A stretch of DNA of 30,514 nt from assembly GCA_964510585.1 (NCBI GenBank), contig CAZECW010000094.1, positions 1 through 30,514 of the forward strand, written 5' to 3'. Positions 8,085 through 30,324 of the stretch are shown piece by piece (positions within the stretch are counted from its first letter, which is position 1; each line of letters begins with the position of its first letter). The DNA comes from an uncultured archaeon (GTDB lineage Archaea; Asgardarchaeota; Jordiarchaeia; Jordiarchaeales; Jordiarchaeaceae). The notes under the pieces were generated by a model. That model had not been told where the DNA came from, ran no database searches, and was given only the letters and a program-made list of their open reading frames with translations. A program made the translations under genes and the position numbers.

Positions 8085-9239
8085 TCATCTAGTTATTTCC
8101 TTGGGTATGGGGGTTATTTCTTTTTTGAAGAGTTTATTTCTGAGCCATAAGGAAATGTTTACCATGTTTATGAGTACTGGGACTTCTAGTAGGGGTCCTA
8201 TGACTGCTGCGAATGCTTGACCTGAAGCTATGCCGAAGACTCCTATTGTTACCGCTATTGCCAATTCGAAGTTGTTACTGGCGGCTGTAAAGGCTATGGT
8301 TGCTGTATTCTCGTAGCTGAATCCTAGACGCCAAGACATCACATAGGATATTAGGAACATTATGACGAAGTATAGAACTAGTGGAATTGCGATTCTCAGA
8401 ACATCGTAGGGGAGGGAAATTATTTTTCCGCCTTGAAGCGAAAACATCATTATAACCGTGAAGAGTAGACCTATTAGAGCAGTTGGGGCCAGCTTCTTAA
8501 CAAAGTAGCCATCATACCACTCTTTTCCTCTTCTCCTTATCAGGCTGTATCTGGTTATCATACCGGCAAATAGAGGTATGCCCAAGTATATTATGACACC
8601 TTTAGCTATGTCAATAATTGACACGTTTACCACTGCGGCCCCCGTAAGGCTCAGTATCCAAGAGGGTACCCCAAGGATTCCCAGAATCCAGCTATATTCC
8701 GCAAACCATGTCGGTGTTCCAGTGAGCAACGAAGGAAGGAAGGTGATATATATGTAAGCTAGTATGGAGTACATTATCATCTGGAAAACCGAGTTTAGAG
8801 CAACTAAAACTGCGCAGAGTTCACTGTCCCCTTTTGCGAGCTGGTTCCAAACAAGTACCATAGCAATGCAGCGAGCCAGCCCAACAATTATGAGCCCCAT
8901 ACGGTACTCGGGCATGTCGGGTAAGAAAACCCACGCTAATGCAAACATTAGCGCTGGGCCAATTATCCAGTTTTGAACAAGGGATAACGCGAAGGCTCTC
9001 TTGGCTCCAAAGAGTCTTGAGAGTTCCTCGTATTTTACTCTGGCTAGTGGTGGATACATCATCCATATGAGTCCTATAGCGATGGGTAGGGAGACGGTGT
9101 CGAGCCTTAGTTCATTAAGAATTCCAGAAACCTCGGGAACCGTGGCGCCTAGTAAAACTCCGATAGCCATTGCCAGAAAAATCCACAGTGTTAGAAATCT
9201 GTCCAGAAGAGAGAGCTTTTGAGTACTTTGATTTGACAT
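8085..9239 (-). CDS. acr3: ACR3-family arsenite efflux transporter
   Basis: [55 protein letters not shown] and GPLLEVPVL motifs. Confidence 0.96.
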
Positions 9240-9324: not shown

Positions 9325-9512
9325 GGGGAGATTGTTGTATATTGCTAAACTAGTGCTTGAGCCGAACGCATTCAAACAAACACTCTTAATGAGAATCTTT
9401 TTATTTCTAAGCAAACACCAAGCGATTTTAATTAAGGACATTTTACGGTAGGTTTAAGTGTATTTAAGATTATCGTTTCATATTGATATTTATAGATTTA
9501 GGATGTGAATCG

Positions 9513-9893
9513 ATGGAACGTTTAGCACGCCTAATCGAGGAGGATGAGTGCTCGGCAAAGTGTGAAGAATACGCTGATGAACTAAAAAAATTAATGGTAG
9601 AGATGGATAAAACCCCGTTATGCAAGTTTGGATCTCTACTTTTTAAAGCCCTAGCGGATCGTAATCGTCTAAGAATTTTGAAGATGCTGGCTGTTAGAGA
9701 GATGTGTGTTTGCGAATTAAATGTGGCATTAGACATTTCTCAGGGAACAATATCGCACCATCTGAAAATCCTCCAAGAAGCCAAATTAATAAAGGGAAGA
9801 GTGAAAGGTAAATGGAACTATTACCGACTCAGCAGTAAACAAGTTGATAAATTCATAAAAATCAGCGAACAACTCATAAAGGAATTATACTAA
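9513..9893 (+). CDS. arsR: ArsR/SmtB-family metalloregulator
   Basis: FKALADRNRLRIL, EMCVCEL (alpha3 CxC) and SQGTISHHLKIL motifs. Extra N-terminal Cys (ECSAKC, PLC). ATG 9513 is preferred over the ORF-track start at 9483. Confidence 0.93.
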   Translation: MERLARLIEEDECSAKCEEYADELKKLMVEMDKTPLCKFGSLLFKALADRNRLRILKMLAVREMCVCELNVALDISQGTISHHLKILQEAKLIKGRVKGKWNYYRLSSKQVDKFIKISEQLIKELY

Positions 9894-11271: not shown

Positions 11272-11613
11272 TTATTTAGATAGGGATTCTATGTCCTTTG
11301 TGGTTTCTGATATTCTGCGTAGGTGTTCTAGTATCATTTCATCGATCAGTTTTAGAACGAGGAATATTCGTGGATCCTTAACCTTATACTCCACTTTTTG
11401 CCCAATTTTTTTGTGCTCTAATATGTTGCAATTTTTTAGGATTTGAATGTGTTGGGAAACTGTAGATTGAGACTTGTAAACGTGGGGTAAAATATCGCAT
11501 TGACAGCACTCACCACTCCTCAGAAGATCCAGAATCTTCAACCTGGTTTCATCAGCCAAGGCTTTGAGCAGCTCAATCCTCTTCTTATACAGAAGCTCCT
11601 CCTTCTTCTCCAA
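11272..11613 (-). CDS. arsR: ArsR/SmtB-family metalloregulator (CCxC type)
   Basis: LKALADETRLKILDLLRSGECCQCDI and SQSTVSQHIQIL. Confidence 0.92.
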   Translation of the reverse strand: MEKKEELLYKKRIELLKALADETRLKILDLLRSGECCQCDILPHVYKSQSTVSQHIQILKNCNILEHKKIGQKVEYKVKDPRIFLVLKLIDEMILEHLRRISETTKDIESLSK

Positions 11614-11666: not shown

Positions 11667-12263
11667 CTAAATTTGGATAACGTGAATCTTTTTTTCAAGC
11701 TCCGCAGATTTTTCACTATCCAAATAGGGACAAGCGCGGGGAGAGTTTTCACCAGTTGCTAGCTTTATGGCAAATCCGTAACATGTGGAAACCCCACACT
11801 CCCCACAATCCTTTTTGGGCAAAAATTTGTTGATTTCAATTGGGCTGAGCTTGGTTTTGCTACTCATCAACTCCGGAGATATCTTCCCGTGGCGATTCAC
11901 ATAAATAGAAGCTCGATTTAAAAGATCCTTAACGTATCTCAGGATACTTTCGGCTTCTTCCCTATCTTTAAGATTTGTAACAGTTATTTTCCCAGCACCA
12001 AAAATTGTGATTAGATGCTCCTGAAACATGAAGCTCATGGACTCCGACTGCCTATTATATGTGGCCTGGGGAAGGTAAAGGTAAATGGCGGGAAGCAAAT
12101 CATCCAGATTTTCACTAGTGGTTCCCACAACTCTTATCCTCTCGGAGCTTGTCAAACAGGGAAGAACTTCAGATATTTTAATCTCCTTCACTCTGGGAGG
12201 AATAAGTAGATTAATAAGGGAAGACCCCTTTTGCCCATCATCAACCATAATCATATCCTCCAT
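11667..12263 (-). CDS. Fe-S-binding protein (COG4871-like; C-terminal putative Fe-S domain)
   Basis: N-terminal LPCLTSSERIRV...HLITIFGAGKITV and C-terminal LPKKDCGECGVSTCYGFAIKL...CPYL. ATG 12263 follows the SD AGGTG. Confidence 0.8.
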   Translation of the reverse strand: MEDMIMVDDGQKGSSLINLLIPPRVKEIKISEVLPCLTSSERIRVVGTTSENLDDLLPAIYLYLPQATYNRQSESMSFMFQEHLITIFGAGKITVTNLKDREEAESILRYVKDLLNRASIYVNRHGKISPELMSSKTKLSPIEINKFLPKKDCGECGVSTCYGFAIKLATGENSPRACPYLDSEKSAELEKKIHVIQI

Positions 12264-12366
12264 TAACACAAACACCTAAACATCACATTAGTTTCTACCC
12301 GCATTTCTAACAAGTTAAAAGACCATCAACTCCTACTGCATTGAACATAGAAAAAAATGCATTTAA

Positions 12367-13475: not shown

Positions 13476-14930
13476 ACGGTTAGTACAATCTCCTCAATAG
13501 AGGTTTTAAAATCTACAATTGACAACAGATTTGTTCGTTTCCTGTTAAGAAGACTAACCCGTAAATGTAGGATAGACGGAAAAAGCCGCTTAAACATCGC
13601 CCTAGAACTTTTTTCAGGAGCTAGAGAAAAAGCTTGCTTTACTTGCAGCCACATAACCCTACCTATTGTTCGGTGGACTATAAACAGAGGCGGCGCAGCA
13701 TTTGGAGTTTCAGAGGAAGATTTGAAAACCAGGTTCAAAGACCCCTATTGGCGCACAGGCCTCGTGGACGTAATTAAGGGAATAGCAAAATATGGTGTAA
13801 AAAAGCCCTTCGTTCCCGGAGCGCCATTCCTCATTGTGTGGGACTACACCTACGCCTGCAACCTGAGATGCAAACACTGCTACGCCTCAGCCGGTAAGCC
13901 TCTACCCAACGAATTCAGCGCCAGGGAGGCACTCGACACTGCTGATGAGCTTGCCGACGCCGGAGTTACCGCTGTTGCATTCTCGGGAGGAGAACCCCTG
14001 ATGCGGAAAGATCTATTCGACACCATGAAGAGGCTGAGAGACAACGGAGTATTCACAGCTGTTGCAACAAACGGAACCCTCATAACTAGGGAGGTTGCTA
14101 AAAAACTTGCAGACCTCGGTGCGGGTTTTGTTCAGATAAGTCTGGATGGCGCAAGCGCCGAAACCCACGATAGTTTCCGCGGTGTGCCTGGCACCTATGA
14201 GAGAACACTCCAAGCTATTAAAAATTGTGTTGAAAACGGCCTCTTCGTTGAGATCTCAACCACAGCTACAAAAATGAATTATGAAGAAGTTCCCAAGATC
14301 GCTGATTTGTGTGAGAAGATTGGCGTCGACTGGTACATGATTTTTAACTTCGTTCCAACTGGTAGAGGATACTTCATGATAGAAAACGACCTAACACCCG
14401 AAGATAGGGAAGATCTTCTCAAGATACTGTGGAACAGGTTGAAAAGTGGTGGTAAACTACAGTATCTATCCACAGCACCTCAATTTGCCAGGGTGGCTCT
14501 ACAAGAAGAGAAAGATTCGGAAAAGAAGATTATACCGGGACACTTCTACAATCCTACGCTAATGGGGCAACTCTCTAACTTGGGTGACTTCATTGGTGGT
14601 TGTGGAGCGGGTAGAATGTATGCAGCCCTTGAGCCTGAGGGCACTCTGCAGCCTTGTGTTTTTCTACCAATTAAACTGGGAAATCTCAGGGAGGAGAGAT
14701 TCGAAGAGATATGGGACAATCATCCCATCCTTCAAACGCTTAGAAACAGGGATGAGCTGAAGGGAAGATGTAAAACCTGCGAGTACAGAGATGTCTGCGG
14801 AGGATGCAGAGCAAGAGCCTACGGATACTTTGGCGATGTCACCGCCCCAGATCCGGGATGCATATATAATAAGGATGTTTTCTACAAACTTAAGACTGAA
14901 TTCGAGGAGAAAAAGGTGATCGAGATTTAG
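13476..14930 (+). CDS. Radical SAM/SPASM protein with archaeal N-terminal extension
   Basis: CNLRCKHC, FSGGEP, QISLDG and SPASM motifs (GCGAG...QPCVF; CKTC...CGGCRARAY...DPGC). The frame is open and protein-like from about 13455. The only SD-supported start is ACG at 13476 (GGAGGT 13464-13469). The ORF-track start at 13722 truncates the conserved N-terminus. Confidence 0.88.
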   Translation, partial: TVSTISSIEVLKSTIDNRFVRFLLRRLTRKCRIDGKSRLNIALELFSGAREKACFTCSHITLPIVRWTINRGGAAFGVSEEDLKTRFKDPYWRTGLVDVIKGIAKYGVKKPFVPGAPFLIVWDYTYACNLRCKHCYASAGKPLPNEFSAREALDTADELADAGVTAVAFSGGEPLMRKDLFDTMKRLRDNGVFTAVATNGTLITREVAKKLADLGAGFVQISLDGASAETHDSFRGVPGTYERTLQAIKNCVENGLFVEISTTATKMNYEEVPKIADLCEKIGVDWYMIFNFVPTGRGYFMIENDLTPEDREDLLKILWNRLKSGGKLQYLSTAPQFARVALQEEKDSEKKIIPGHFYNPTLMGQLSNLGDFIGGCGAGRMYAALEPEGTLQPCVFLPIKLGNLREERFEEIWDNHPILQTLRNRDELKGRCKTCEYRDVCGGCRARAYGYFGDVTAPDPGCIYNKDVFYKLKTEFEEKKVIEI

Positions 14931-14943
14931 GGGATACCTCTGT

Positions 14944-16335
14944 ATGCGTGTCTTGTTTGTTTTTCCCCCCTCTGTTTCAGCCATTCTCAACATTCTTGGT
15001 ACTACCTCTCCGCCTCTCGGGCTTGCTTATCTAGCCTCTTCGCTTGAGAGGGAGGGTGTGAATGTTAAGATTCTTGACGCGCAGGCACTAAATTTGAGCT
15101 TTGAGGAAATCGAAAGAGAGATAAGAGTTTGGAAACCCGATGTTGTCGGTGCCACGGGCGCCACACCAGCCTGCTTTGATGCACTCAGGGCTTTGGAGAT
15201 AGCTAAAAATTATGGTGCTAAAACTGTGGTGGGTGGTCCTCACTTCTCGTTTACAGACGTTGAAACTCTTGATAACTATCCTTTTGTGGACTTTGTTGTG
15301 AGAGGTGAGGGTGAAGAAACAATTGTGGAGCTTATAAGGGCTCTCGAGGGAAGCGGAAAAGTTTCGGAGGTATTAGGCTTGACGTACAGGGATGGAGAAA
15401 GTGTTCGAAAGAATCAGGATAGGCCGCTCATTAAAAATATTGACAGTATTCCCTTTCCAGCGTTCCACCTTCTCCCCATGAACAAGTACACTTTCGGCAA
15501 GTACCATTACGCAACAGCTATGACAAGCCGGGGTTGCCCTTACAGATGTGTTTTTTGCGCCTCATCAAAACTATTCGGTAAAAGGTGGAGGGGCAGAAGC
15601 CCAGAGAACGTGGCAGATGAGCTGGAACAACTTACTGAAAATTACCGTGTTAGAAACATTGAGTTTCTCGACGATACATTCACCCTAGACAAGGAACGGG
15701 CGGAGAAGATTTGTGACGAAATAATTAAGAGGGGACTGGATATAGTTTGGAATTGCTCCTCTAGGGTAAACACCATCAGCCGCAGTTTACTTGAAAAAAT
15801 GAAGAGAGCTGGCTGTACCTCCATATACTACGGCGTTGAATCTGGCTCCCAAGAAATACTGGATCGCATGAAGAAGGGAATCACACTAGACCAGATAGTA
15901 AGGGCGTTTAAAATAACCAAACGGGTGGGTATGGAGATAATAGGTTCATTCATAATCGGCTTCCCGGGTGAAACAATAAACACGATTAAAAAAACTATTA
16001 GTTTCGCAAAGTTTCTAAAACCGGACTACGCCCAATTCACCATCTGCACTCCATATCCCGGAACAGAACTCTTCGAAATCATTGAAAACAGTGACAATAT
16101 GCAGCTTTTAACCAAGGACTGGAGTGAATACGATGCCTTGAAACCAGTGTTTACGATAAACGATACACTCTATCCCTCACCATTAGATCTTATAAAATGG
16201 GTGAAGAAAGCCTATTTGAATTTCTATGTTTCACTGAGCTTTCTGTTTCAGCAGCTTAAAAAGAAACGCTTCATTGTTTGGAGAAAGGTGCTAAACGCAT
16301 TTAAGAATTATATAAAAGGCAATATCAGGTTCTGA
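14944..16335 (+). CDS. Cobalamin-binding radical SAM protein (class B methyltransferase-like)
   Basis: PPLGLAYLAS, GGPH, GEGE, SRGCPYRCVFC, DDTF, YGVESGSQ, IIGFPGET and TPYPGT motifs. Confidence 0.93.
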   Translation: MRVLFVFPPSVSAILNILGTTSPPLGLAYLASSLEREGVNVKILDAQALNLSFEEIEREIRVWKPDVVGATGATPACFDALRALEIAKNYGAKTVVGGPHFSFTDVETLDNYPFVDFVVRGEGEETIVELIRALEGSGKVSEVLGLTYRDGESVRKNQDRPLIKNIDSIPFPAFHLLPMNKYTFGKYHYATAMTSRGCPYRCVFCASSKLFGKRWRGRSPENVADELEQLTENYRVRNIEFLDDTFTLDKERAEKICDEIIKRGLDIVWNCSSRVNTISRSLLEKMKRAGCTSIYYGVESGSQEILDRMKKGITLDQIVRAFKITKRVGMEIIGSFIIGFPGETINTIKKTISFAKFLKPDYAQFTICTPYPGTELFEIIENSDNMQLLTKDWSEYDALKPVFTINDTLYPSPLDLIKWVKKAYLNFYVSLSFLFQQLKKKRFIVWRKVLNAFKNYIKGNIRF

Positions 16336-20267: not shown

Positions 20268-20750
20268 TTATGTTACCTTTTTTGTTACTGGGGCTTTTTT
20301 ACATACGCTGTTTTTTGGGGAAACTATTTGTTTCTCGTAGAGTTCATCCACCTTTTTTGCGATTTCTTCTGCGATTTTGTACGCTAATTCGTAACCAGCC
20401 TCGCCGAGGTCTTCTCGGGATTTGGGAACCAAAGCAGGGTATTTTTTCATTATTTCCTTTACTCTAATGGTTGCTGCTACAGGGCCGCTGTAGTTTTCCA
20501 CAGCAGTTCTGGCACATTCTTCTTCGCACCCTTCAATTGTGATTGTTGGGTGGGTCTTTGCAAATTCCCTTTCTTGGTTTCTACCTTTTCTTTCTAGTCC
20601 TCCAGCCATGAATAGGGGTTGACATAGGATTACAGTTTTTTCAGGTCGTAACTTTTCAAAAGCTATTATTGCAGCAACTCGGGATAAGGTGCCTTCAACC
20701 AAGTCTTCGCCACTGCAGGCAATGAGCCCAATTTTCTGTCTTATAGGCAA
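20268..20750 (-). CDS. DGC-domain putative zinc-binding protein (type B)
   Basis: IACSGEDLVEGT, ILCQP and IEGCEEECA (Cys4). TTG 20750 follows the SD GGTGA (the ORF track starts at 20786). Confidence 0.85.
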   Translation of the reverse strand: MPIRQKIGLIACSGEDLVEGTLSRVAAIIAFEKLRPEKTVILCQPLFMAGGLERKGRNQEREFAKTHPTITIEGCEEECARTAVENYSGPVAATIRVKEIMKKYPALVPKSREDLGEAGYELAYKIAEEIAKKVDELYEKQIVSPKNSVCKKAPVTKKVT

Positions 20751-20751
20751 G

Positions 20752-21171
20752 TTAATCACCGTTTCTTTTTTCTTCAAGTAACTCATTTATTTTTTGGTAG
20801 ATTTTTTCTGCAAGTTTGCGGGATAGTTTTTTTGCATTTTCTCCTAGTGGATAAACACTTCTTTCTGGTTTCAATTCACGATTTTCTTTTAATACATCTG
20901 TTGACAGGAATTGAGCATCAATTTTTCCCACAGCTTCTGAAACATCATTATACGAACACTTTAGAGAACACCCGTCAATCACAATAACTTTGTTTGATTT
21001 TAGTTTATCAATAACTTCTTTTTTCCCCTTAACAATTAGTGGGAGACATTCTGTGTCCGCCTTGCCTTTAGCTAGTTCGTTTACCACGATGTATGCTGCT
21101 TCTCTGCCTATACTGCCATAGACTTTACCTATTCCACTGCAGGGAAGCAGGTAAACTATTTCTTTTGTCAA
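20752..21171 (-). CDS. DGC-domain putative zinc-binding protein (type A)
   Basis: LPCSGIGKVYG, ECLP and IDGCSLKCS. Confidence 0.88.
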   Translation of the reverse strand: MTKEIVYLLPCSGIGKVYGSIGREAAYIVVNELAKGKADTECLPLIVKGKKEVIDKLKSNKVIVIDGCSLKCSYNDVSEAVGKIDAQFLSTDVLKENRELKPERSVYPLGENAKKLSRKLAEKIYQKINELLEEKRNGD

Positions 21172-21173
21172 GC

Positions 21174-22055
21174 TCAGTCGCCTATGTTTTGTGCTCTGTG
21201 TTTTCGTTCTTCTTCTATTTTCTTTTTCATATACTCAAAATAGGCTGGACCGTCCATTAATAATTCTTTATCCTCTTCAAAGTTTTTCAGTTCTACTTCT
21301 ACGAACCATCCCTTCCCATAGGGATCTTGATTTAATAGTTCGGGTGATTTTTCTAGTTCCTTGTTCACCGCGACGACTTTGCCTGAAGCGGGAGTAATCA
21401 GTTGGAGGACAATTTTTATGGATTCAAAGCTTCCTATGTCGTCAAACTGTTCAAATTCCAAACCGATTTCGGGAAATTCCACAAAAATTATGTCGCTTGC
21501 CATGTTTTGGAGGAAATCAGAGATGCCCATAAGCGCCTTTTTACCCATGGGTTTTACCCAGCAATCATTTTCATTAAAATAGTAGCCAGACTTTGGAACT
21601 CTGAAACGGAACTTATCTACGGTGGTTTCAAAATATTCGATTTCTTCCAGCTCCCTAATCTCAGCAACCTCACCTTCTGATTCCTTTAAACTTTCAAGAA
21701 TTTCGGACGCTATGAATTCGGCTAATTTTTGCCCCTCCTCATCCAAAATGAGAGATTTTCCGGGGTTCAACTTGTACTTTTTAACCATGTCGGGCGTAAA
21801 AATTTTTTTACCGGGCCTTAATGATCTTTCATCAAGTAGCTTAGTTGCGCAGCGAGTCATACATCCATCAATCACAATTATATCAGATTCCTTCAAGAGT
21901 TCTTCGTATTTTTCATCTCCCGTATTCAGGAGAACGGGGCATATCAGCTCGATGTCAGGATTCTTTTCTATTAATTTCAATGCCACGTTTCTAGCAACAA
22001 CACCCAAAGACTTATCAAGCCCATTGCAGGGCAAAACACAAACCTTCTTACCCAT
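21174..22055 (-). CDS. DGC-domain / glycine-cleavage-H (lipoyl carrier) fusion protein
   Basis: N-terminal LPCNG, ICP and IDGCMTRCA. C-terminal GISDF..DIIFVEFP..GSFESIK (lipoyl Lys, codon 21414-21416)..PASGKVVAVN..PELLNQDPYGKGW. Confidence 0.9.
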   Translation of the reverse strand: MGKKVCVLPCNGLDKSLGVVARNVALKLIEKNPDIELICPVLLNTGDEKYEELLKESDIIVIDGCMTRCATKLLDERSLRPGKKIFTPDMVKKYKLNPGKSLILDEEGQKLAEFIASEILESLKESEGEVAEIRELEEIEYFETTVDKFRFRVPKSGYYFNENDCWVKPMGKKALMGISDFLQNMASDIIFVEFPEIGLEFEQFDDIGSFESIKIVLQLITPASGKVVAVNKELEKSPELLNQDPYGKGWFVEVELKNFEEDKELLMDGPAYFEYMKKKIEEERKHRAQNIGD

Positions 22056-22068
22056 GAGAAATTCACCT

Positions 22069-22371
22069 CTACTCGCTTTCCTTCCTTAATTCTTTGATTA
22101 GCTTGGTAATCTCTCTTTTGTCGGGAAATGATAGTGCGTCCACAGCGCAGGTTTTGGCGCAAGCCCTACAAAAAACTACACAGTTGTATGGGTTTTTTAC
22201 TATCAGTTTCTTTTCCTCATTTTCTCTCCGCTCGTAAACGTTGTGGGGACAAAACTTGTCGCACTCCATACAGAAATTGCACTTGCTGTAGTCGATTGTG
22301 GGGAACCAGGGAATTTTCTTTCTGGGAACGCCCATAAAGGTTTCCTGTTCCGCATCGTACTCTTTACTCAT
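22069..22371 (-). CDS. 2x[4Fe-4S] ferredoxin-like protein
   Basis: CNFCMECDKFCP and CVVFCRACAKTC, with an N-terminal FMGVPRKKIPWFPTIDY extension. Confidence 0.9.
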   Translation of the reverse strand: MSKEYDAEQETFMGVPRKKIPWFPTIDYSKCNFCMECDKFCPHNVYERRENEEKKLIVKNPYNCVVFCRACAKTCAVDALSFPDKREITKLIKELRKESE

Positions 22372-22762
22372 TCTTTTCTTCCTCCTCCTCTTTCTTTTCT
22401 TGGTATTCTTCTAGGGTTTTTTCAACTAGTTCTACAGCTTGGTCTGTTGTCATTTCTCTTATGTCGAGGGGTATGAGGTCTTTTTTTACATCTAGACCCG
22501 CTTTTTCGAAAGAGTCACGAAACAGTTTATATTGCATGTTGGGAGCGCAACCCGCTATGAGGTATTTTCGTCCGGGACGCAGAAAATCTTCAAGGAAGCG
22601 GTCACCATCTTCTTCGCAAAGCTGTGGATGAATAAACGCATATTCTACGGGTAGTTCTACACGTACCCGGTTAATAAAGTCCCAAATATCCATTTTTGCA
22701 AATCCTGGACATTTACCGGTGCATACGCACATTATAACGCCGATGTCTTTTTCTTCACTCAT
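22364..22762 (-). CDS. Stand-alone HdrA N-terminal-domain-like protein
   Basis: IGVIMCVC, QLCEEDG, IAGCAPNM..LFR and DIRE mirror the HdrA N-terminus (IGVYxCHC, MCSDPG, VAACSP..FR, NIRE). ATG 22762 is preferred; the ORF-track extension runs through the promoter. Confidence 0.7.
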   Translation of the reverse strand: MSEEKDIGVIMCVCTGKCPGFAKMDIWDFINRVRVELPVEYAFIHPQLCEEDGDRFLEDFLRPGRKYLIAGCAPNMQYKLFRDSFEKAGLDVKKDLIPLDIREMTTDQAVELVEKTLEEYQEKKEEEEEKNE

Positions 22763-22880
22763 TTCAAATTTCCACCTTTTTTGCAATGCTTGCCAAAAAT
22801 TTTTCCGAATGAATCTGCCTCTATAATTCTGGAATAAATTTTTTATGAACATAAGGACGAGGGAGTAGATAAATATAAAT

Positions 22881-22900
22881 ATATCGATTAATGGCAATAT
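22881..22900. promoter_or_regulatory. Putative ArsR-type operator
   Basis: ATATCG-ATTAATGG-CAATAT in the divergent intergenic region. Confidence 0.65.
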
Positions 22901-23066
22901 TATAATAAAAGATGTGTAGGTGTCCAAATATTTTCAAAATCCCGACATTAAAGCATTTTTTATTCAAAGATGCTACCAAAAATATCGTTTATAGATAGCA
23001 ATTATAACATTTGTTCTTTTTTGTAGAAAGAGGAAGCGGAATTAATTCAGGCCTAGTAATATTGAT

Positions 23067-23095
23067 ATATTGTCATAAAACGATAAGTTTAAATA
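23067..23095 (+). promoter_or_regulatory. Putative ArsR-type operator plus TATA box
   Basis: ATATTG-TCATAAAA-CGATAA (23067-23086) immediately before TTTAAATA (23088-23095). Confidence 0.6.
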
Positions 23096-23275
23096 CTTCA
23101 CTGAAATTGTACCATTGTCAGAAAGTCTATTTCGCACCCAACTATAACACAAAGAAAGAAATCCTTAAAGCAAATCTTTGACGCATTGCCAAAGAGAAAA
23201 GTGCGGACAATGTAATTTTGTATTCTGGAAATATGTGAAGAACAATTCAGACCTCAGTCAGGGAGGAAGTGAAAA

Positions 23276-23692
23276 TTGACTAAAAAGGTTGTAGTGCTAC
23301 CCTGCAGCGGCGTTGGAAAAGTTTACGGAACAATTTCACGTGAAGCAGCCTACAAAGCAGTCGAAGAACTTAAACTAGGAAAAACATCAATCACCTGTCT
23401 ACCACTACTAGTGGTGGGAGACGATGACGCCGAAAAGCTGGTTCAGGAGAATCCCTGTATCGTCATAAATGGTTGTCCATCAGGCTGCGCGACCTTAGCA
23501 ACTGAGAAGGCTGGAGGAAAGATAGTTCAGATAATTGACGTTACCAAAGTGCTCAAGGAGAACAGAGATTTAAAACCTAACCAGATGGCCATAAGAGAAC
23601 TTGACCCGAAGGGGAAAAAGTTAGCTGAGATAATAGCGGAAAAGATCAGTCAAGAGGTAGATAGAATATTAGACTCAGAGGAAGGAGGTTGA
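23276..23692 (+). CDS. DGC-domain putative zinc-binding protein (type A)
   Basis: LPCSGVGKVYG, TCLP and INGCPSGCA. Paralog of 20752..21171. Confidence 0.88.
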   Translation: MTKKVVVLPCSGVGKVYGTISREAAYKAVEELKLGKTSITCLPLLVVGDDDAEKLVQENPCIVINGCPSGCATLATEKAGGKIVQIIDVTKVLKENRDLKPNQMAIRELDPKGKKLAEIIAEKISQEVDRILDSEEGG

Positions 23693-23696
23693 AACA

Positions 23697-24122
23697 TTGT
23701 TTATTCCAATGGTAGGAGTGGTTCCCTGTAGTGGCGAGGAAATACCTGAAGGGACTGTTGCGAGAATTGCTGCACGCATTGTTTTGGAGAAGTTGAGACC
23801 CACCAAAACCATGACCATCTGCTTGCCTCTATATCTTGCTGGAGGAAAAGATGAGCAGGAGTTTGTCAGGAGGCAACCCACAATTGTCATAGATGGCTGC
23901 GGCAAGGGATGCGCTGAAAAAAGTATAAGAAAAAATGGGGGAAACATAGCCGCAGTAATCAGGGTTCCCGAAATAATGAATGGATGTAAACTTAGGGCAA
24001 AGACCAGGGCCAAGCTGGATGAAGAAGGCGAAAAACTGGCTGAGATAGTAGCAGAAAAAATCGCAGAGGAGGTAGACAGAGTACTCCAAGAAATGAAAAA
24101 GAAAAGCGAACAAGGAGGATAA
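23697..24122 (+). CDS. DGC-domain putative zinc-binding protein (type B)
   Basis: VPCSGEEIPEGT, ICLP and IDGCGKGCA. Paralog of 20268..20750. Confidence 0.88.
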   Translation: MFIPMVGVVPCSGEEIPEGTVARIAARIVLEKLRPTKTMTICLPLYLAGGKDEQEFVRRQPTIVIDGCGKGCAEKSIRKNGGNIAAVIRVPEIMNGCKLRAKTRAKLDEEGEKLAEIVAEKIAEEVDRVLQEMKKKSEQGG

Positions 24123-24253
24123 AACTGACCAAAAAATCAAAAAACGAAATGTTACTTGTCTAACTTTTTCAAATACAAAGTTTTGCGAAAAATTCGCTAA
24201 ACGAATAGTACTCAGGTAAAAAATTTGAAAATGAATTTAGAGGAGGAAAAGAA

Positions 24254-24661
24254 ATGGAAGGAAAAGAAGGTAAGACTGTTATCTATGCTTGTTTTGGTGG
24301 TTTTTCCAATACCGGCATTACTACTGCTTTAGCCAGCATGGATGCGGTAAAAGAGGTTGGACTAGACAAGGTATGTATAGGTTGCTTGGGTGGATTGCCA
24401 ATAAACGTAAGACCTGTTTATGAAAACACTGATAAAGCGAAGAAAATTATTACCGTTGACGGTTGCCCGATGGAATGTTCAAGGAAAACAGTGGAGAATG
24501 CAGGATACAAGATAGCTAAAAGCATTGTACTAGCAAGAGACATCGGAATGAAGAAAAAGTCACTATATGAAGGAAATGAGAAAAACCTGACAGACAACAT
24601 TAATGGGGAAGATGTCAGAAAAGCAAAAGAGCTAATTGTCAAAGCAATACTAGAGGATTAA
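24254..24661 (+). CDS. DGC-domain putative zinc-binding protein (type C)
   Basis: YACFGGFSNTG, IGCLGG and VDGCPMECS. Confidence 0.88.
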   Translation: MEGKEGKTVIYACFGGFSNTGITTALASMDAVKEVGLDKVCIGCLGGLPINVRPVYENTDKAKKIITVDGCPMECSRKTVENAGYKIAKSIVLARDIGMKKKSLYEGNEKNLTDNINGEDVRKAKELIVKAILED

Positions 24662-24987: not shown

Positions 24988-25440
24988 CTAGTCACTTAGT
25001 TTATCGACTGCTTCTGTAGGTGTTAAAGCTTGAATGTTGAGATAGTCTTTGAAGTCTGCGGGGTTCCAGGTTACCAAAACCTCGGAGTAGGCTTCTGCGT
25101 GGGAGGCTATAAGGAAGTCTGGTAAAATTCTTTTTCTCGCTCCTGGCCGTTGAAGAAGGTACTGGGAAAACATTTGCCCAGCTCTCTTTGCGACCTCCAA
25201 GGAACCACCAAGGTGAACTAATATATTGTTTACCGCAAGGAATTTTTGAACATTATACTCTTCTTCCTCCGGATTCCCACTGAGAAATATTCCCGCATAT
25301 AGTTCTGCATACACAACTCCAGAAATTATCAGACTCAGTTTTTTATCTCTAGCCCATCTGAAAAATTTGAGTGTCTCGTGAAAGAATTCGTCGGCTTTGA
25401 GATGGCTAATTATAACACTTGTATCAAGTGAAACTCTCAA
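24988..25440 (-). CDS. vapC: PIN-domain (VapC) toxin
   Basis: LDTSVII, VYAEL, ILPDFLIASHA and LVTWNPADF motifs. Confidence 0.92.
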   Translation of the reverse strand: MRVSLDTSVIISHLKADEFFHETLKFFRWARDKKLSLIISGVVYAELYAGIFLSGNPEEEEYNVQKFLAVNNILVHLGGSLEVAKRAGQMFSQYLLQRPGARKRILPDFLIASHAEAYSEVLVTWNPADFKDYLNIQALTPTEAVDKLSD

Positions 25441-25442
25441 CC

Positions 25443-25700
25443 CTAATCCTCTTCTTCGGCTTTGCCTCTAAGCCATCGTACAATTTCTACTGAGTTTTTC
25501 ATTTTTCCAAAGATAGGATGGTTGTTCCAGACCCCTGCAGTTTCCGCCATGACTTTCTCCCACTCTCCGCCAACCTTCTCTATAATTATTTTGCCGTCTA
25601 CATATCGGACATCGACAATGTCTCCTATGGTTAGCCCTACTTTCTCCCTAATCTCTTGAGGAATTGTTACCTGAAAGCGACGCGTGACCTTTACAAACAA
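25443..25700 (-). CDS. AbrB/MazE/SpoVT-family antitoxin
   Basis: VKVTRRFQVTIPQEIREKVGLTIGDIVDV...GKIIIEK. Confidence 0.9.
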   Translation of the reverse strand: MFVKVTRRFQVTIPQEIREKVGLTIGDIVDVRYVDGKIIIEKVGGEWEKVMAETAGVWNNHPIFGKMKNSVEIVRWLRGKAEEED

Positions 25701-25803: not shown

Positions 25804-26859
25804 TTATGGGAGAATTGTTTTTGCTTGCATTATTGCTACTATGAGGTCTGTTGGTTTTATTCCAGGTGTAATAATATTTTGTTTATAAAAATCTTCGACT
25901 ATTTGTTTTATGTTTTGATAGTTGTATGGTTTGTCTTTTAGCATTTTTTCGAGTTGTTTTAGTGCCTGTGGAGGGGTTATGAAGAAGTCTCCGCTTATGT
26001 TTATTTCTTTAATATTGTTGTTGGATATGTTTAGTGAGACGCGTATTAGTCCTCCGGGTGCCTTGTACACGGTTTCGTGTTCAAACTCGAGGCTGCTTCC
26101 AAAAATCCACTCGGGGGAGCTATACTTTTTTTGGAGTTCCCGGGCCATTTCGAGTTCTTCTGGTGTGAGTTTCGAGTCCTGGAACTCGACGCCAAGAGCT
26201 TCTTGGTATCCCCTGCGAACCGCGTTTTTCACAATACTCACGGGAATTGTTGTCCCCAGCTCCCTTTTTATTGTTGTCACTCTATCTCTTACTGAGGATG
26301 CATTCTTGTCCCTGAGTTTTTCGGTGGACACTCTCAGAGCATTTTCTAAATTTTCAAAGTTTAGATCTATGAGGAGTGTTCCGTGATGGATGAGAACATT
26401 ATGGAGTTGGTGCTGAGCGTTTCCAGAAATTTTTCTTTTACCAATAACAATATCATTTACGGGCTTAAACTCTGCCTCCAGTCCCAATAATTTAAGGGCG
26501 ATAATTAAACCTCTACAGAGATACGAGTATGATTCTATGGGGTCTTTGAAGGATCTGAACTTGTTAGTGTCTATGTAGAGTGAGTAGTTTAGGTTTCCCG
26601 AATCCTGGTACACTGCCCCGCCCCCCGATAGTCTTCTAACTATTTTTATTCCCTTCTGTTTACAGTAGTCTACATTCACTTCTTTCTCTACCCGCTGGTT
26701 GCACCCTACACTTACGATTAGGGGGTGTTGCCACACTCTGAGAGCGTTTGGAGAATTTTTTTCCAGTATGCTTCTGGCCATGGTTTCTTCTATTGCTAGG
26801 TTCATGTATGGGTCATCTGAACTATAGTCGATAAAGCGCCAGGACTCCTTCAAAGTCAC
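25804..26859 (-). CDS. lplA: Lipoate-protein ligase A (with C-terminal adenylation-assisting domain)
   Basis: YMNLAIEE, VRRLSGGGAVYQDSGNLNYS, VNDI, RKISGNAQ, HHGTLL and C-terminal YKAPGGLIRV...ISGDFF. Confidence 0.93.
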   Translation of the reverse strand: MTLKESWRFIDYSSDDPYMNLAIEETMARSILEKNSPNALRVWQHPLIVSVGCNQRVEKEVNVDYCKQKGIKIVRRLSGGGAVYQDSGNLNYSLYIDTNKFRSFKDPIESYSYLCRGLIIALKLLGLEAEFKPVNDIVIGKRKISGNAQHQLHNVLIHHGTLLIDLNFENLENALRVSTEKLRDKNASSVRDRVTTIKRELGTTIPVSIVKNAVRRGYQEALGVEFQDSKLTPEELEMARELQKKYSSPEWIFGSSLEFEHETVYKAPGGLIRVSLNISNNNIKEINISGDFFITPPQALKQLEKMLKDKPYNYQNIKQIVEDFYKQNIITPGIKPTDLIVAIMQAKTILP

Positions 26860-26867
26860 CCCGCCCC

Positions 26868-27902
26868 TTACTTTATTCTTTTAATCTCTTCCCTTACAAT
26901 ATTTGAAAACTCTTCAGGGGTGGGAACAGTTCTTCCATATTTTAGTTCGCCGTTTACTATCACTGCAGGAATCTGGGACTTTTTAGCAGCTTCTATTAAC
27001 CCGTTTGTAACAGTGACACCGGGAGGTAGACCTCTCCCCCTTCTCCATATCCTTAACTCAATTTCTTCTTCGTTCCCAGACATTTTTATTCCCTCCTTCA
27101 CATTTTTTTCTATCTGGGAACACATTTTAGTGGGGGGAGAAGCAGTCAAAACCTCTATGAGAAGTTTACCATAAGCTAGAGGTGGAGAAAACTCCAAATT
27201 CCACCTTGGAGACTGATACTTAGTTTTCAAAACCCGTTCAAAAGTTTTATTCTCTAAATCTGTCAAGCTTCCCTCAATAAGGGTGGCTCCAAATTTTTCC
27301 CTTATTCTACTTGAGGCTTCCTCTATAAACTCTCTAACAGTTTTTTTGCTTGATGAGAGCCGTGTTAGACTGGATACCTTTTTGGGGAGGATACCCGCAG
27401 AGTTGGCAAAATCCACGTCGACATCCAAGTAAACGACGCCCTGAAAAACTAATATATCATAGTACCAAAACTGTGAAACTTGAGAGGTTACCACATCATC
27501 TACGAATAGGTAAGATGTATTATCAAAGGCACATTTTACGCCAAAATTTTCTATTGTTTCGATTATTGGAGAGTAAACCAGCCGGTACAAATCATTTAAC
27601 TCTCTTGGAAAAAGAGGATCACGTGTATCAAGGATGAAGCCAAATAGTAATGAACCTTCATCAGCGTAGAATGTTGGTCCATCAGTAACCCTCCTAATAA
27701 TTCGGACGTTTTTCTCTTTGAGGAAACTCATCTGGTCTTGGTTCAACCGCAGGTTTCCTAAAACTATGGAGGGAGGGCTTCTCCAAAAATGTACTGTGTT
27801 GGGTGCATCTCCACCCTTGACGTGGAGCATGATGGTTTCATCTAAAGCCCACCCCAAGCTTGGCTCAACAAGGTCTTGGATAAAAATTCTTAGTTCCTTA
27901 AT
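26868..27902 (-). CDS. Degenerate lipoate-ligase domain fused to C-terminal thioredoxin-like domain (paralog of 10213..11250)
   Basis: ALDETIM, TVHFWR, IRRVTDGP and VVTSQVSQ..FQG (no catalytic Lys), with PPTKMCSQIE...IPAVIVNG..PT. ATT 27902 (SD GGAGGT, 1 nt after the upstream stop) fits the paralog alignment. The alternative ATGs at 27953/27977 overlap the upstream gene. Confidence 0.8.
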   Translation of the reverse strand: MKELRIFIQDLVEPSLGWALDETIMLHVKGGDAPNTVHFWRSPPSIVLGNLRLNQDQMSFLKEKNVRIIRRVTDGPTFYADEGSLLFGFILDTRDPLFPRELNDLYRLVYSPIIETIENFGVKCAFDNTSYLFVDDVVTSQVSQFWYYDILVFQGVVYLDVDVDFANSAGILPKKVSSLTRLSSSKKTVREFIEEASSRIREKFGATLIEGSLTDLENKTFERVLKTKYQSPRWNLEFSPPLAYGKLLIEVLTASPPTKMCSQIEKNVKEGIKMSGNEEEIELRIWRRGRGLPPGVTVTNGLIEAAKKSQIPAVIVNGELKYGRTVPTPEEFSNIVREEIKRIK

Positions 27903-27903
27903 T

Positions 27904-28599
27904 TTAGTGACCTCCCTTATAATATACACATTTATCCTTTTTACATTCTTCATTGTTGGAAGAAAAGGGACACCCATCGAAATTTGAGGGTAATTTGATT
28001 TGAAAATTTTTTTCTAAAAAGTCTACGGCGCTTTTTAACGAGGCATAAACGCTGGCTTTGCAGCATCTTGGACCTCCCAACTTTGAGATAGAGAGTAGTG
28101 ATTCACCACTGGCATCCAAAGACTGCGTCCTTTCAGTGTCAGACTTGTAAGTTGCTCCCGTTAGAACGCTCATGGCAATTCCAACACCTGCCCCAGCTCC
28201 GCAAATCCCCCAGGATCCGCAAGTACCATAAGGTATCATTTTCCCCCTCTTAATGGCAATTCTAATTGCTCTGGATGGCAATTCGTGCCCTACATTTTTT
28301 ATTGTGGTTAATAGTACAGCGGGAACAAGGTAGTGATGGATGGGAGAATGCATGGGTATTGCGGGATGCTTCATTATTAGGTTAGCTAGTTCGTATGGGT
28401 TTTTTATTTCACTTCTCTCACAGGTTTTTAAAACTAATTCTTCTGGGAGAGCTAGTCTACAGTTCTCGCACACAAAGTGGTGGTCATCGCAAGTATAGTC
28501 TGCAACTGAAACCTCCTTACAATATATGCACCTTAGCTCTTCAGAAGTTGGGTGAAGAACTTTATTGCAAATATTGCAGTAGAAAACCTCGTTTTCCAA
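27904..28599 (-). CDS. DUF5714-like Cys-rich protein with N-terminal zinc-finger-like domain
   Basis: CNIC, CIYC, C..HHFVCENC, HSPIHHYLVPAVLL, GTCGSWGICGAG, GGPRCCK and CPFS..N.EC....C motifs. Confidence 0.75.
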   Translation of the reverse strand: MENEVFYCNICNKVLHPTSEELRCIYCKEVSVADYTCDDHHFVCENCRLALPEELVLKTCERSEIKNPYELANLIMKHPAIPMHSPIHHYLVPAVLLTTIKNVGHELPSRAIRIAIKRGKMIPYGTCGSWGICGAGAGVGIAMSVLTGATYKSDTERTQSLDASGESLLSISKLGGPRCCKASVYASLKSAVDFLEKNFQIKLPSNFDGCPFSSNNEECKKDKCVYYKGGH

Positions 28600-29225: not shown

Positions 29226-29588
29226 TTAGAAAATGATTATGGCTTCGCCCTGTTTTAGAATTATTTTTACCAACTCTTCTTCTTCAATGGGAGTGATGCC
29301 TTTTATTATTCTTGCTTCAGGTATTCTTCTTTCCTGAAGAGATTTTTTGTGAACATATAATTCGGACTCGGGAAGAAGTGTATAGATTAAATCTTCCACG
29401 CTGGGCATAGATATTTTCTCTGGGTTTTGATTTGAAATTGTGGCATATACTCCATCGCCCATAAATAATATTGTGCATTTAAGCCCGCTGTTGAGGCATG
29501 CTACGGCTACATATAGTCCACTGAAACAGTCTTCAAAACCGTAGGGCGCTTTTGTGATGATTAGCAGTACCGTGTTAATTTTAATCAC
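29226..29588 (-). CDS. DsrE/DsrF-like family protein (DsrF/TusC-like)
   Basis: LLIITKAPYG, LFMGDGVY and LYVHKKSLQERRI motifs. Confidence 0.85.
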   Translation of the reverse strand: MIKINTVLLIITKAPYGFEDCFSGLYVAVACLNSGLKCTILFMGDGVYATISNQNPEKISMPSVEDLIYTLLPESELYVHKKSLQERRIPEARIIKGITPIEEEELVKIILKQGEAIIIF

Positions 29589-29592
29589 CTTC

Positions 29593-29976
29593 TTAAAGGG
29601 CTAATACCTTATCACTATTTTTGAGCCAGTAGCCCAAGTCACGCAGATTAGCTATGTGAACCCCACTAACATGTTGGCTGGTGGGATAAATTCCATCTTT
29701 CTCCTCCCCCTCAACATAACCCCTAGCTCCTGCACAACGCGAGCAGGATTTTATTTTTGCTCCCTTCTCAGCCAGTTCACTGAGTTTTTCACCAACATTG
29801 GGGAAATATTTTGGACTCTGCCCCTTTTTAGCAGAGTGAACTGCCTCCATATAAAGAAAAATGTTAACGTTGTAACCCTTCTCAAGAGCCTTCTCAGCTA
29901 TTAAGAGACCAATATCCACTCTTTGAGAAGCATAAGGACCATGATATAGAACTAAGGTCAATGTCTTGCCCATCAT
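29593..29976 (-). CDS. DsrE/TusD-like sulfurtransferase family protein
   Basis: VLYHGPY, VNIFLYMEAV and KSCSRCAGARG (conserved Cys). Confidence 0.87.
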   Translation of the reverse strand: MMGKTLTLVLYHGPYASQRVDIGLLIAEKALEKGYNVNIFLYMEAVHSAKKGQSPKYFPNVGEKLSELAEKGAKIKSCSRCAGARGYVEGEEKDGIYPTSQHVSGVHIANLRDLGYWLKNSDKVLAL

Positions 29977-29982
29977 AATCAC

Positions 29983-30324
29983 CTAGAAGCATAAAATTCT
30001 ATCAGCACTTTCCATAATATCAACTACCATCTTTTCAACCAAGTTATATTGACATTTTACCCGTTTTGTAAGTAAATCCTCCTGAATCCCCCGTGCCTCC
30101 AAATCCTCCTTACTCGCAAAAACTTGAATGTGCTCAGAATCAATAGTTTCTAGATTCATTCCTCTCATTCCACAGTATACTCCATCACCAATCAAGTACA
30201 CTGTGACACTAGCATCAGTTCTAATAATTTCACTTATTAAGTCGAATGCTTTCTCTACCCGCTCCGAAATTGGAGGATCCATTATGATAGAAACAACTTT
30301 CAACAAGACACTACCACCACACAC
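29983..30324 (-). CDS. DsrH/TusB-like protein
   Basis: VYLIGDGVY and FASKEDLEARGI. The start is probably TTG 30303 or 30306. Confidence 0.75.
   Translation of the reverse strand: MCGGSVLLKVVSIIMDPPISERVEKAFDLISEIIRTDASVTVYLIGDGVYCGMRGMNLETIDSEHIQVFASKEDLEARGIQEDLLTKRVKCQYNLVEKMVVDIMESADRILCF

Follow-up and report, generated by a model that had tools for sequence, protein, structure and literature searches.

A 30,514-nt contig from an uncultured Asgard archaeon of the Jordiarchaeia (CAZECW010000094.1, analysed whole and hereafter called the window) carries six genes for DGC-domain proteins in two divergent operons, each of which contains a type A gene followed by a type B gene. We find that this A–B order is kept across archaea and bacteria, and that A–B pairs are part of a lipoyl-carrier module that is linked to ArsR/ACR3 and includes an Fe-S pair for presumed electron entry. 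Our preferred reading, to which we would give a probability of roughly 40%, is that the six genes supply the DGC part of a conserved, unstudied module acting on protein-bound lipoyl, usually within an ArsR/ACR3 regulon, and that A and B have a redox role in it. A full-text literature search returned nothing on PF08859 or COG4273, or on ars operons with lipoyl or DGC genes, and all matches for 'DGC domain' concerned diguanylate cyclases. The window has a G+C content of ∼40%, and the stretch is present in hot-spring metagenomes of several studies. The nearest protein matches place the genome among Asgard archaea of the Jordarchaeia/Freyarchaeia type.

Six DGC genes and their cysteines

On the minus strand, the leftward operon includes a DGC::GcvH fusion gene (21174..22055), a type A gene (A_L, 20752..21171) and a type B gene (B_L, 20268..20786). 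The rightward operon, on the plus strand, consists of A_R (23276..23692), B_R (23697..24122) and a third type, C (24254..24661). All six open reading frames (ORFs) match the Pfam DGC family (PF08859) with 40.8–63.9 bits (B_L 40.8, A_L 55, B_R 55.2, A_R 58.5, C 61.8), above the gathering threshold of 27 bits, and the fusion matches GCV_H as well. The start of B_L is uncertain and may lie downstream of 20786; its longest ORF overlaps A_L by 35 nt. A scan of the organism's own genome (3.78 Mb) recovered exactly six DGC matches, all of them in the window. The family is small (771 cluster representatives in a set of 1.84 billion proteins), and at such rarity six copies within 4.4 kb are not a matter of chance.

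When the six ORFs are aligned, C11, G13, C42, G67, C68 and C72 (A_L numbering) are invariant, and the central motif reads DGC, NGC or EGC. An earlier reading of this DNA, made from its letters and ORFs (the sequence-only reading), had listed these six ORFs, described a four-cysteine pattern (CxG, C, [D/E/N]GC, xxxC) and proposed A and B type signatures common to both operons. Its inventory agrees with the Pfam scores, the pattern is kept in all six proteins, and the signatures stand as written: LPCSGIGKVYG in A_L and LPCSGVGKVYG in A_R, ACSGEDLVEGT in B_L and PCSGEEIPEGT in B_R. Family-wide, Cys1, Cys3 and Cys4 are 98–100% conserved in A, and likewise in B. Cys2 is found in 84% of A versus 97% of B members, and about half of A members have a fifth cysteine, which in B is not among the commonest patterns. 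Subtype A is marked by PCSGxGK, Tyr27 and Asp50, and subtype B by a Gly at the strand start, CSGE and an invariant Phe.

Bacterial B proteins (loci L033–L107) have an extra C-terminal domain of ∼80 residues that is not recognised by Pfam and carries a conserved CxC(G/S)S..P motif and an LPLIF...VKIYN signature. In L065 and P0136, a Thioredoxin_3 domain takes the place of this extension.

Order and phylogeny of the A–B pair

We surveyed one genome per species with the B-type alignment as query, which gave at least 552 relatives, and analysed the best 80 loci. Being anchored on B, this set is blind to A genes without a B. In 78 of the 80 loci, the gene immediately upstream of B on the same strand is an A gene; of the remaining two, one encodes A and B in a single ORF and the other is on a contig that starts at B. 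The loci come from Asgard archaea, Bathyarchaeia and at least six bacterial phyla; a cultivable carrier is Ornatilinea apprima P3M-1 (locus L090). The DGC matches among 40 relatives are almost only tandems spaced ∼430 bp apart.

Phylogenetic trees tell the same story. In a tree of 56 rows, all but two of the last genes of tandems fall into one B clade (98/96 support), which holds no other genes. In a tree of 220 rows, there is an A clade of 92 rows, all first genes of a tandem (98 in the Shimodaira–Hasegawa-like approximate likelihood ratio test, SH-aLRT), and a B clade of 94 rows, all second genes (SH-aLRT 99), with two divergent-type pairs as the only exceptions (L007 8510/8898 and L024). 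None of 500 label shuffles was as clustered as this tree. A_L and A_R belong to the A clade and B_L and B_R to the B clade, where B_L sits with the last genes of core operons. Each A is 24–41% identical to its own B, and A–A and B–B identities correlate across loci (r = 0.75). The sequence-only reading had called for a test of A–B adjacency in other genomes, and both the loci and the trees show that the order is kept far beyond this one. The clade structure and conserved order imply that the A/B duplication predates the spread of the pair through Archaea and Bacteria. A and B are ancient paralogues that have been inherited together, in order, since the duplication.

A predicted A–B complex

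The same reading had proposed that A and B form a heteromer, and this idea is well supported in silico by adjacency, natural A::B fusions and complex prediction with clean controls. With ESMFold2, the A_L–B_L complex scored 0.71 (0.71, 0.74 and 0.68 in the runs), compared to 0.02 for the best control; a score of 0.71 is reached by 51 of 78 solved complexes and by 2 of 108 mismatched pairs. At least 96% of contacts were common to the runs, and the partner predicted local distance difference test (pLDDT) value was at least 78. The predicted interface (residues 8–15, 40–50 and 70–76 of A; 23–28, 53–67 and 89–95 of B) is built from equivalent segments of the two chains, the loops with Cys1, Cys2 and Cys4, and places Cys42 of A beside Cys91 of B. 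Neither sequence search nor fold search found a DGC structure among solved structures, so it is unlikely that the model merely reproduced a known complex.

Eight representative proteins contain two DGC domains. In one of these, P0121, the first half scores as A and the second as B, and the fusion fills the slot of the separate genes in the order GcvH-[A::B]-OsmC-ArsR. Its AlphaFold2 (AF2) model, made from a shallow alignment, has a predicted template modelling (pTM) score of 0.77; as this value was obtained despite a disordered 26-residue linker, a defined packing of the two halves is implied. These models suggest that A–B is most likely a pseudo-symmetric heterodimer in which the Cys loops of both subunits meet.

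The AF2 model of A_L (pLDDT 95) is a flavodoxin-like three-layer sandwich, in which cysteines follow strands 1, 2 and 3 and also occupy the beginning of the helix that comes next. In this fold, the C-terminal ends of the parallel strands are the usual cofactor or active-site position. Foldseek against solved structures gave a best E value of 0.039, and a wide structural search returned generic flavodoxin-like rows, headed by 3pu6_A (Z 8.9, root-mean-square deviation 2.9, 112 residues). HdrA was not among the top rows of these fold searches, and the matching AlphaFold DB clusters held DGC entries only and no other family.

The leftward core operon

The gene order of the leftward operon is X, ferredoxin, DGC::GcvH, A_L, B_L, with tight packing throughout (−8 nt between X and ferredoxin, 13 nt between ferredoxin and DGC::GcvH, 2 nt between DGC::GcvH and A_L). 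An identical X-ferredoxin-DGC::GcvH-A-B order is seen in a Lokiarchaeota contig, a contig labelled Bathyarchaeia, a complete Freyarchaeia genome and two other Asgard families, as well as in Acidobacteriota, Planctomycetota, Thermoleophilia and others. The leftward operon is a conserved five-gene core.

X (22364..22762, minus strand) resembles a stand-alone N-terminal Fe-S domain of HdrA. Its longest ORF spans 22364–22927, with the start probably at 22762 as in orthologues. X is 65–90% identical across Asgard lineages and has five invariant cysteines. A search of its profile against the PDB matched residues 6–93 of HdrA (7BKB_A, E = 0.001), with the CxCG, xC and xxCxP motifs in register; further matches, to 9SFI (E = 0.013) and 5ODC (E = 0.18), extend from residues 2–3 to 90, and the statistics are modest throughout. 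X thus corresponds to only about the first 90 residues of HdrA and lacks the flavin part. The adjacent gene (22069..22371, minus strand) encodes a 100-residue 2×[4Fe-4S]-type ferredoxin (Pfam Fer4 families) that is conserved upstream of DGC::GcvH in relatives.

In the fusion protein, the GcvH part matches Pfam GCV_H (1.2e-31), and the lipoyl lysine, in the motif ESIK, aligns with that of ESVK in the GcvH structure 1ONL. These features identify a GcvH-like lipoyl carrier. The fusion has ∼1000 homologues, mostly in Asgard archaea. We considered whether it could be the H protein of glycine cleavage and rejected this: it scores below the gcvH equivalog cut-off (TIGR00527, 109.3 versus 115.85) and has no gcvP or gcvT nearby. 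GcvP is encoded on another contig, and the fusion is one of five GcvH paralogues in the genome. At C193:51482–53064, another paralogue has a gene for an LplA-type ligase directly after it. The genome (completeness 96%) yielded no E2 core of a 2-oxoacid dehydrogenase.

Neighbourhood of A–B pairs

To describe the setting of the pair more broadly, we tallied the gene families found no more than 5 kb from B across the 80 loci. GcvH, fused or free, is present in 76 loci, ArsR in 54, OsmC in 45, ACR3 in 40, ferredoxin in 37, thioredoxin-like genes in 30, X in 29, LplA in 18 and DsrE in 2. X and ferredoxin precede the DGC genes in 29 loci. Two nearly exclusive architectures dominate: X-ferredoxin with DGC genes (27 loci) and GcvH-A-B-OsmC (43 loci), with both in only 2 loci. 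X plus ferredoxin and OsmC look like alternative redox partners of the A–B pair. No OsmC gene is present on this contig.

The rightward pair and type C

B_R starts 4 nt after A_R, and C follows B_R after 131 nt. The sequence-only reading had described a duplicated A–B pair. Two pairs are indeed present, but a recent duplication can be ruled out: A_L and A_R are only 46% identical, as are B_L and B_R, and the two pairs have separate orthologues. In the trees, A_R clusters with the first genes and B_R with the second genes of a distinct operon type in Jordarchaeia relatives, which encodes a thioredoxin-like protein, A, B and a stand-alone GcvH (Trx3-A-B-GcvH) and adjoins DsrEFH and ArsR genes. 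The rightward pair is hence an old paralogue derived from this operon type. In the complete Freyarchaeia genome and the Lokiarchaeota contig, an extra pair lies directly upstream of X on the same strand, and in this window it is inverted, facing the core operon. As the rightward pair has no carrier of its own here, it probably shares the DGC::GcvH protein.

Type C is nearest to single-copy DGC genes beside ACR3 or ArsR in other Asgard lineages. One caveat here is that long branches may affect this placement. The order A-B-C is also seen in L029.

Proposed function and alternatives

Across loci, the constant partners are the lipoyl carrier and the A–B pair, and the variable ones are either Fe-S carriers or thiol enzymes; we therefore read A–B as a heterodimeric centre acting on the lipoyl dithiol/disulfide. 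In the mechanism we propose, eight cysteines meet at one A–B interface and would form a redox-active centre, most likely an iron-sulfur one. Electrons would enter the leftward system via ferredoxin and the HdrA-N-terminal-like Fe-S protein X, and travel on via the DGC subunits to the lipoyl disulfide of DGC::GcvH, which they would reduce. The resulting dihydrolipoyl dithiol would then serve arsenic defence, by supplying reductant to thiol-dependent enzymes or by chelating As(III). What we infer here is which cofactor is bound, which way electrons flow and how the module relates to arsenic chemistry; the genes, their cysteines and order, the clades, the fusions, the neighbourhood counts and the predicted interface are direct results. 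A more specific version, in which A–B and the carrier-fused DGC domain constitute a new Fe-S disulfide reductase that uses ferredoxin, not NADH, to reduce protein-bound lipoyl, is tentative and on balance doubtful.

Lipoic acid is a textbook victim of arsenite. Here, hundreds of anaerobic species combine arsenic-resistance genes with a dedicated lipoyl carrier, and the same two Cys proteins are always present. If A–B is a heterodimeric redox or metalloid-binding centre acting on lipoyl, this would give the DGC family a function and lipoate a new role, and would point to an unrecognised arsenic-handling step in anaerobes, including the Asgard relatives of eukaryotes. If the reductase proposal is true, strict anaerobes, Asgard archaea among them, would have a dedicated, arsenic-switched supply of dihydrolipoyl groups.

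Several observations weigh against the redox reading. A set of four cysteines would suit Zn or As(III) no less than Fe-S, and the DGC fold is generically flavodoxin-like, none of its solved relatives being informative. Between DGC and the HdrA-N-like X, a profile comparison gave an hhalign probability of 1.3%, which is not significant, although the Cys columns line up. The complex prediction covered A_L with B_L, and A–A or B–B may bind in the same way. X plus ferredoxin and OsmC are nearly exclusive, and the electron chain differs between architectures. In addition, a third type of A–B pair (L010, L012, L014 and L016; Jordarchaeum-family) has no GcvH, ArsR or ACR3 nearby; its downstream neighbours are two KaiC/GvpD-like ATPases and a zinc-type alcohol dehydrogenase. 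This makes the pair itself more basic than the module. Sulfur species and metals other than arsenic are also sensed by regulators of the ArsR family. Finally, a separate reductase is not obviously needed, because the genome encodes three Pyr_redox_dim proteins, among which there may be a lipoamide dehydrogenase. For the same reason, we dropped the argument that the genome lacks this enzyme.

The main rival is direct binding and hand-off of As(III), which we consider possible but unlikely. Here, the cysteines of A–B and DGC::GcvH, together with the dihydrolipoyl dithiol, would form an arsenite metallochaperone or sponge that passes arsenite to ACR3 or keeps it off essential lipoyl enzymes, with the Fe-S proteins keeping the thiols reduced. 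Dihydrolipoamide is a classic As(III) target, and a vicinal Cys pair of the CxC kind, like that in the C-terminal extension of bacterial B proteins, binds As(III) in ArsR. Consistent with this idea, ACR3 and ArsR occur near A–B in 40 and 54 of the 80 loci, and single-copy DGC genes sit directly beside ACR3 or ArsR in L025, L026 and L028. However, As(III) sites normally comprise three cysteines, and four are conserved here; the DGC fold differs from the thioredoxin-like fold of ArsD; one A–B pair type has no ars genes nearby; and a dedicated ferredoxin and an HdrA-like Fe-S domain favour electron transfer over metal hand-off. Three further explanations are less likely still. A structural role for zinc, with each DGC domain binding one Zn through its four cysteines and serving, possibly as a homodimer, as a non-redox scaffold or adaptor for the lipoyl carrier, seems improbable to us. 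Cys4 is a common type of Zn site, and the absence of Cys2 from 16% of A proteins would be tolerable in a structural site. Pfam and NCBI do label the family putative zinc-binding, but that name is a guess from conservation alone. The cysteines lie at the C-terminal ends of parallel strands, where this fold usually has its active site, and the same residues form the predicted subunit interface. Moreover, the constant Fe-S, thioredoxin-like, OsmC and lipoyl neighbours suggest redox or thiol chemistry.

We give equally little weight to a sulfur relay, in which DGC proteins and the lipoyl carrier would traffic sulfane sulfur or sulfite together with DsrEFH and TauE, following a logic like that of sHdr-LbpA and controlled by a sulfur-sensing ArsR-type repressor. 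Such repressors do include sulfite and sulfane sensors, and BigR-like families gave weak matches here. DsrE/E/H and TauE genes are present in the window, and DsrEFH adjoins the Trx3-A-B-GcvH operon in Jordarchaeia relatives; DsrE, however, is found in just 2 of the 80 A–B loci, compared to 40 for ACR3. LbpA proteins, GcvH-like lipoyl carriers that come with ligases of their own (PMC6067878, PMC10332631), fit this scheme. Against it, X is the HdrA N-terminal domain only, without the flavin part, and no gene with a CCG domain (HdrB-like) is on this contig, the genome's 67 CCG matches all lying elsewhere. Care of the cofactor is a similarly remote prospect. DGC proteins would help to build, load or repair the lipoyl group of the carrier, for instance by removing arsenic or re-reducing a damaged dithiolane, in concert with the three LplA-like proteins and the DUF5714 protein encoded in the window. 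LplA follows B in 18 of 80 loci, and DUF5714 and LplA-like genes flank the core operon in L008 and L060, but most A–B loci are without LplA. Radical-SAM (S-adenosylmethionine) enzymes insert the sulfur into the octanoyl group (PMC10332631), and a motif of this kind is absent from DGC. For an assembly factor, three to six paralogues would also be a large number.

Comparison with known systems

The closest described systems, lipoyl peroxidase relays and sHdr-LbpA, share the idea of a lipoyl shuttle with the reading proposed here. Lipoyl peroxidase relays include Lpd-DlaT-AhpD-AhpC of M. tuberculosis, the bacterial lipoyl-protein/Ohr system and the L-protein/H-protein/OsmC system of Trichomonas. 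As proposed for the DGC module, protein-bound lipoyl acts there as a dithiol shuttle to small thiol enzymes; correspondingly, an OsmC gene follows B in 45 of the 80 related loci, and thioredoxin-like genes are frequent. Unlike the module in this window, with its ferredoxin, HdrA-N-like Fe-S protein and ArsR/ACR3 setting, these relays are fed by the NADH flavoenzyme Lpd and have neither DGC proteins nor an ars setting.

The sHdr-LbpA system (Cao et al. 2018, PMC6067878; Tanabe et al. 2023, PMC10332631) likewise has a dedicated, non-canonical GcvH-like lipoyl carrier. The genes that accompany this carrier code for LplA-type ligases of its own, a part related to HdrA, proteins of the DsrE family and a regulator of the ArsR type. 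By contrast, the cluster in the window has no HdrB/HdrC (CCG) genes and only the N-terminal Fe-S domain of HdrA, while sHdr has no DGC proteins and no ars setting, and DsrE is rare beside A–B elsewhere. With none of the 67 CCG matches on the contig and HdrA only partial, we ruled out that the module is itself an sHdr-LbpA system. Those 67 CCG-domain (HdrB/HdrD/GlpC type) matches represent ∼35 genes, an unusually large number for 3.8 Mb.

Ferredoxin-thioredoxin reductase (FTR) is a small Cys-rich heterodimer with an Fe-S centre by its thiols that converts one-electron input from ferredoxin into two-electron reduction of a disulfide. The likeness to A–B is one of idea only, as there is no relation in sequence or fold, and the FTR motif CPC...CPC...CHC is absent from DGC. 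Accessory thiol proteins of the ArsD/ArsA kind resemble the DGC proteins in being small and Cys-bearing, with genes next to that of an ArsR-controlled arsenite pump. In ArsD, the fold is thioredoxin-like, arsenic is bound by three cysteines (a Cys12-Cys13-Cys18 type site), and the partner is ArsA. DGC proteins differ in being flavodoxin-like, in having four cysteines, in occurring as an A–B pair and in accompanying a lipoyl carrier. Given the flavodoxin-like model, with four cysteines spread over three loops and a helix start, we ruled out that DGC is an ArsD metallochaperone.

Arsenic genes, operator-like motif and other features of the window

The arsenic genes of the window lie to the left of the DGC operons. 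They comprise an ACR3 arsenite efflux transporter (8085..9239, minus strand; TIGR00832 equivalog, 429 bits versus a cut-off of 283), an ArsR/SmtB-family regulator (9483..9893, plus strand; Pfam HTH_5, NF033788) and a second ArsR/SmtB-family regulator (11272..11613, minus strand), of a type that adjoins the core operon in relatives. An operator-like palindrome, ATATYG-N8-CRATAT, occurs at 8 sites in the window (9305, 12367, 13311, 16952, 22881, 23067, 25602 and 29137), compared to 0.27 expected. One copy (ATATCG-N8-CAATAT, 22881..22900) is upstream of X, and another, with one mismatch (23067..23086), is in the divergent intergenic region. The sites are at the promoters of acr3/arsR, an Fe-S/TBP-like gene, a radical-SAM pair, a small ORF, the two DGC operons and the dsrE side. 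Their distribution over 20 kb suggests one regulon.

Downstream of the rightward operon, the minus strand encodes an LplA-type lipoate-protein ligase with catalytic and C-terminal domains (25804..26859; Pfam LplA-B_cat 2.8e-59, Lip_prot_lig_C) and a divergent LplA-like protein (26868..27977; LplA-B_cat 3.8e-19), two of the three LplA-like genes in the window. These are followed by a gene for a Cys-rich DUF5714 protein (27904..28599, minus strand; Pfam DUF5714 9.5e-57), a type that adjoins LplA-like genes in L008 and L060. The DUF5714 protein resembles part of the NCBIfam model 'metal-binding double selenoprotein MbdU' (137 bits, below the cut-off). DsrE/DsrE/DsrH-like genes, identified with Pfam, occupy 29226..30324 on the minus strand; they are a lineage-specific neighbour, adjoining the A–B operon in Jordarchaeia relatives only. 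Between the rightward DGC operon and the LplA genes (24988–25700) is a VapBC-like pair, made up of a PIN-domain toxin gene and a small AbrB/SpoVT-like antitoxin-type gene.

Two other features recur in some of the related loci. A protein of 202 residues (11667–12275) combines an RnfB/CdhE-type N-terminal Fe-S motif (PF04060) with a weak TBP-like part, and this protein type is found near A–B in 12 of the 80 loci. At 13722–16335, behind an operator-like site, a radical-SAM/SPASM gene lies beside a B12-binding radical-SAM gene; the Freyarchaeia genome (L009) and some bacterial loci likewise have the SPASM enzyme next to the core operon.

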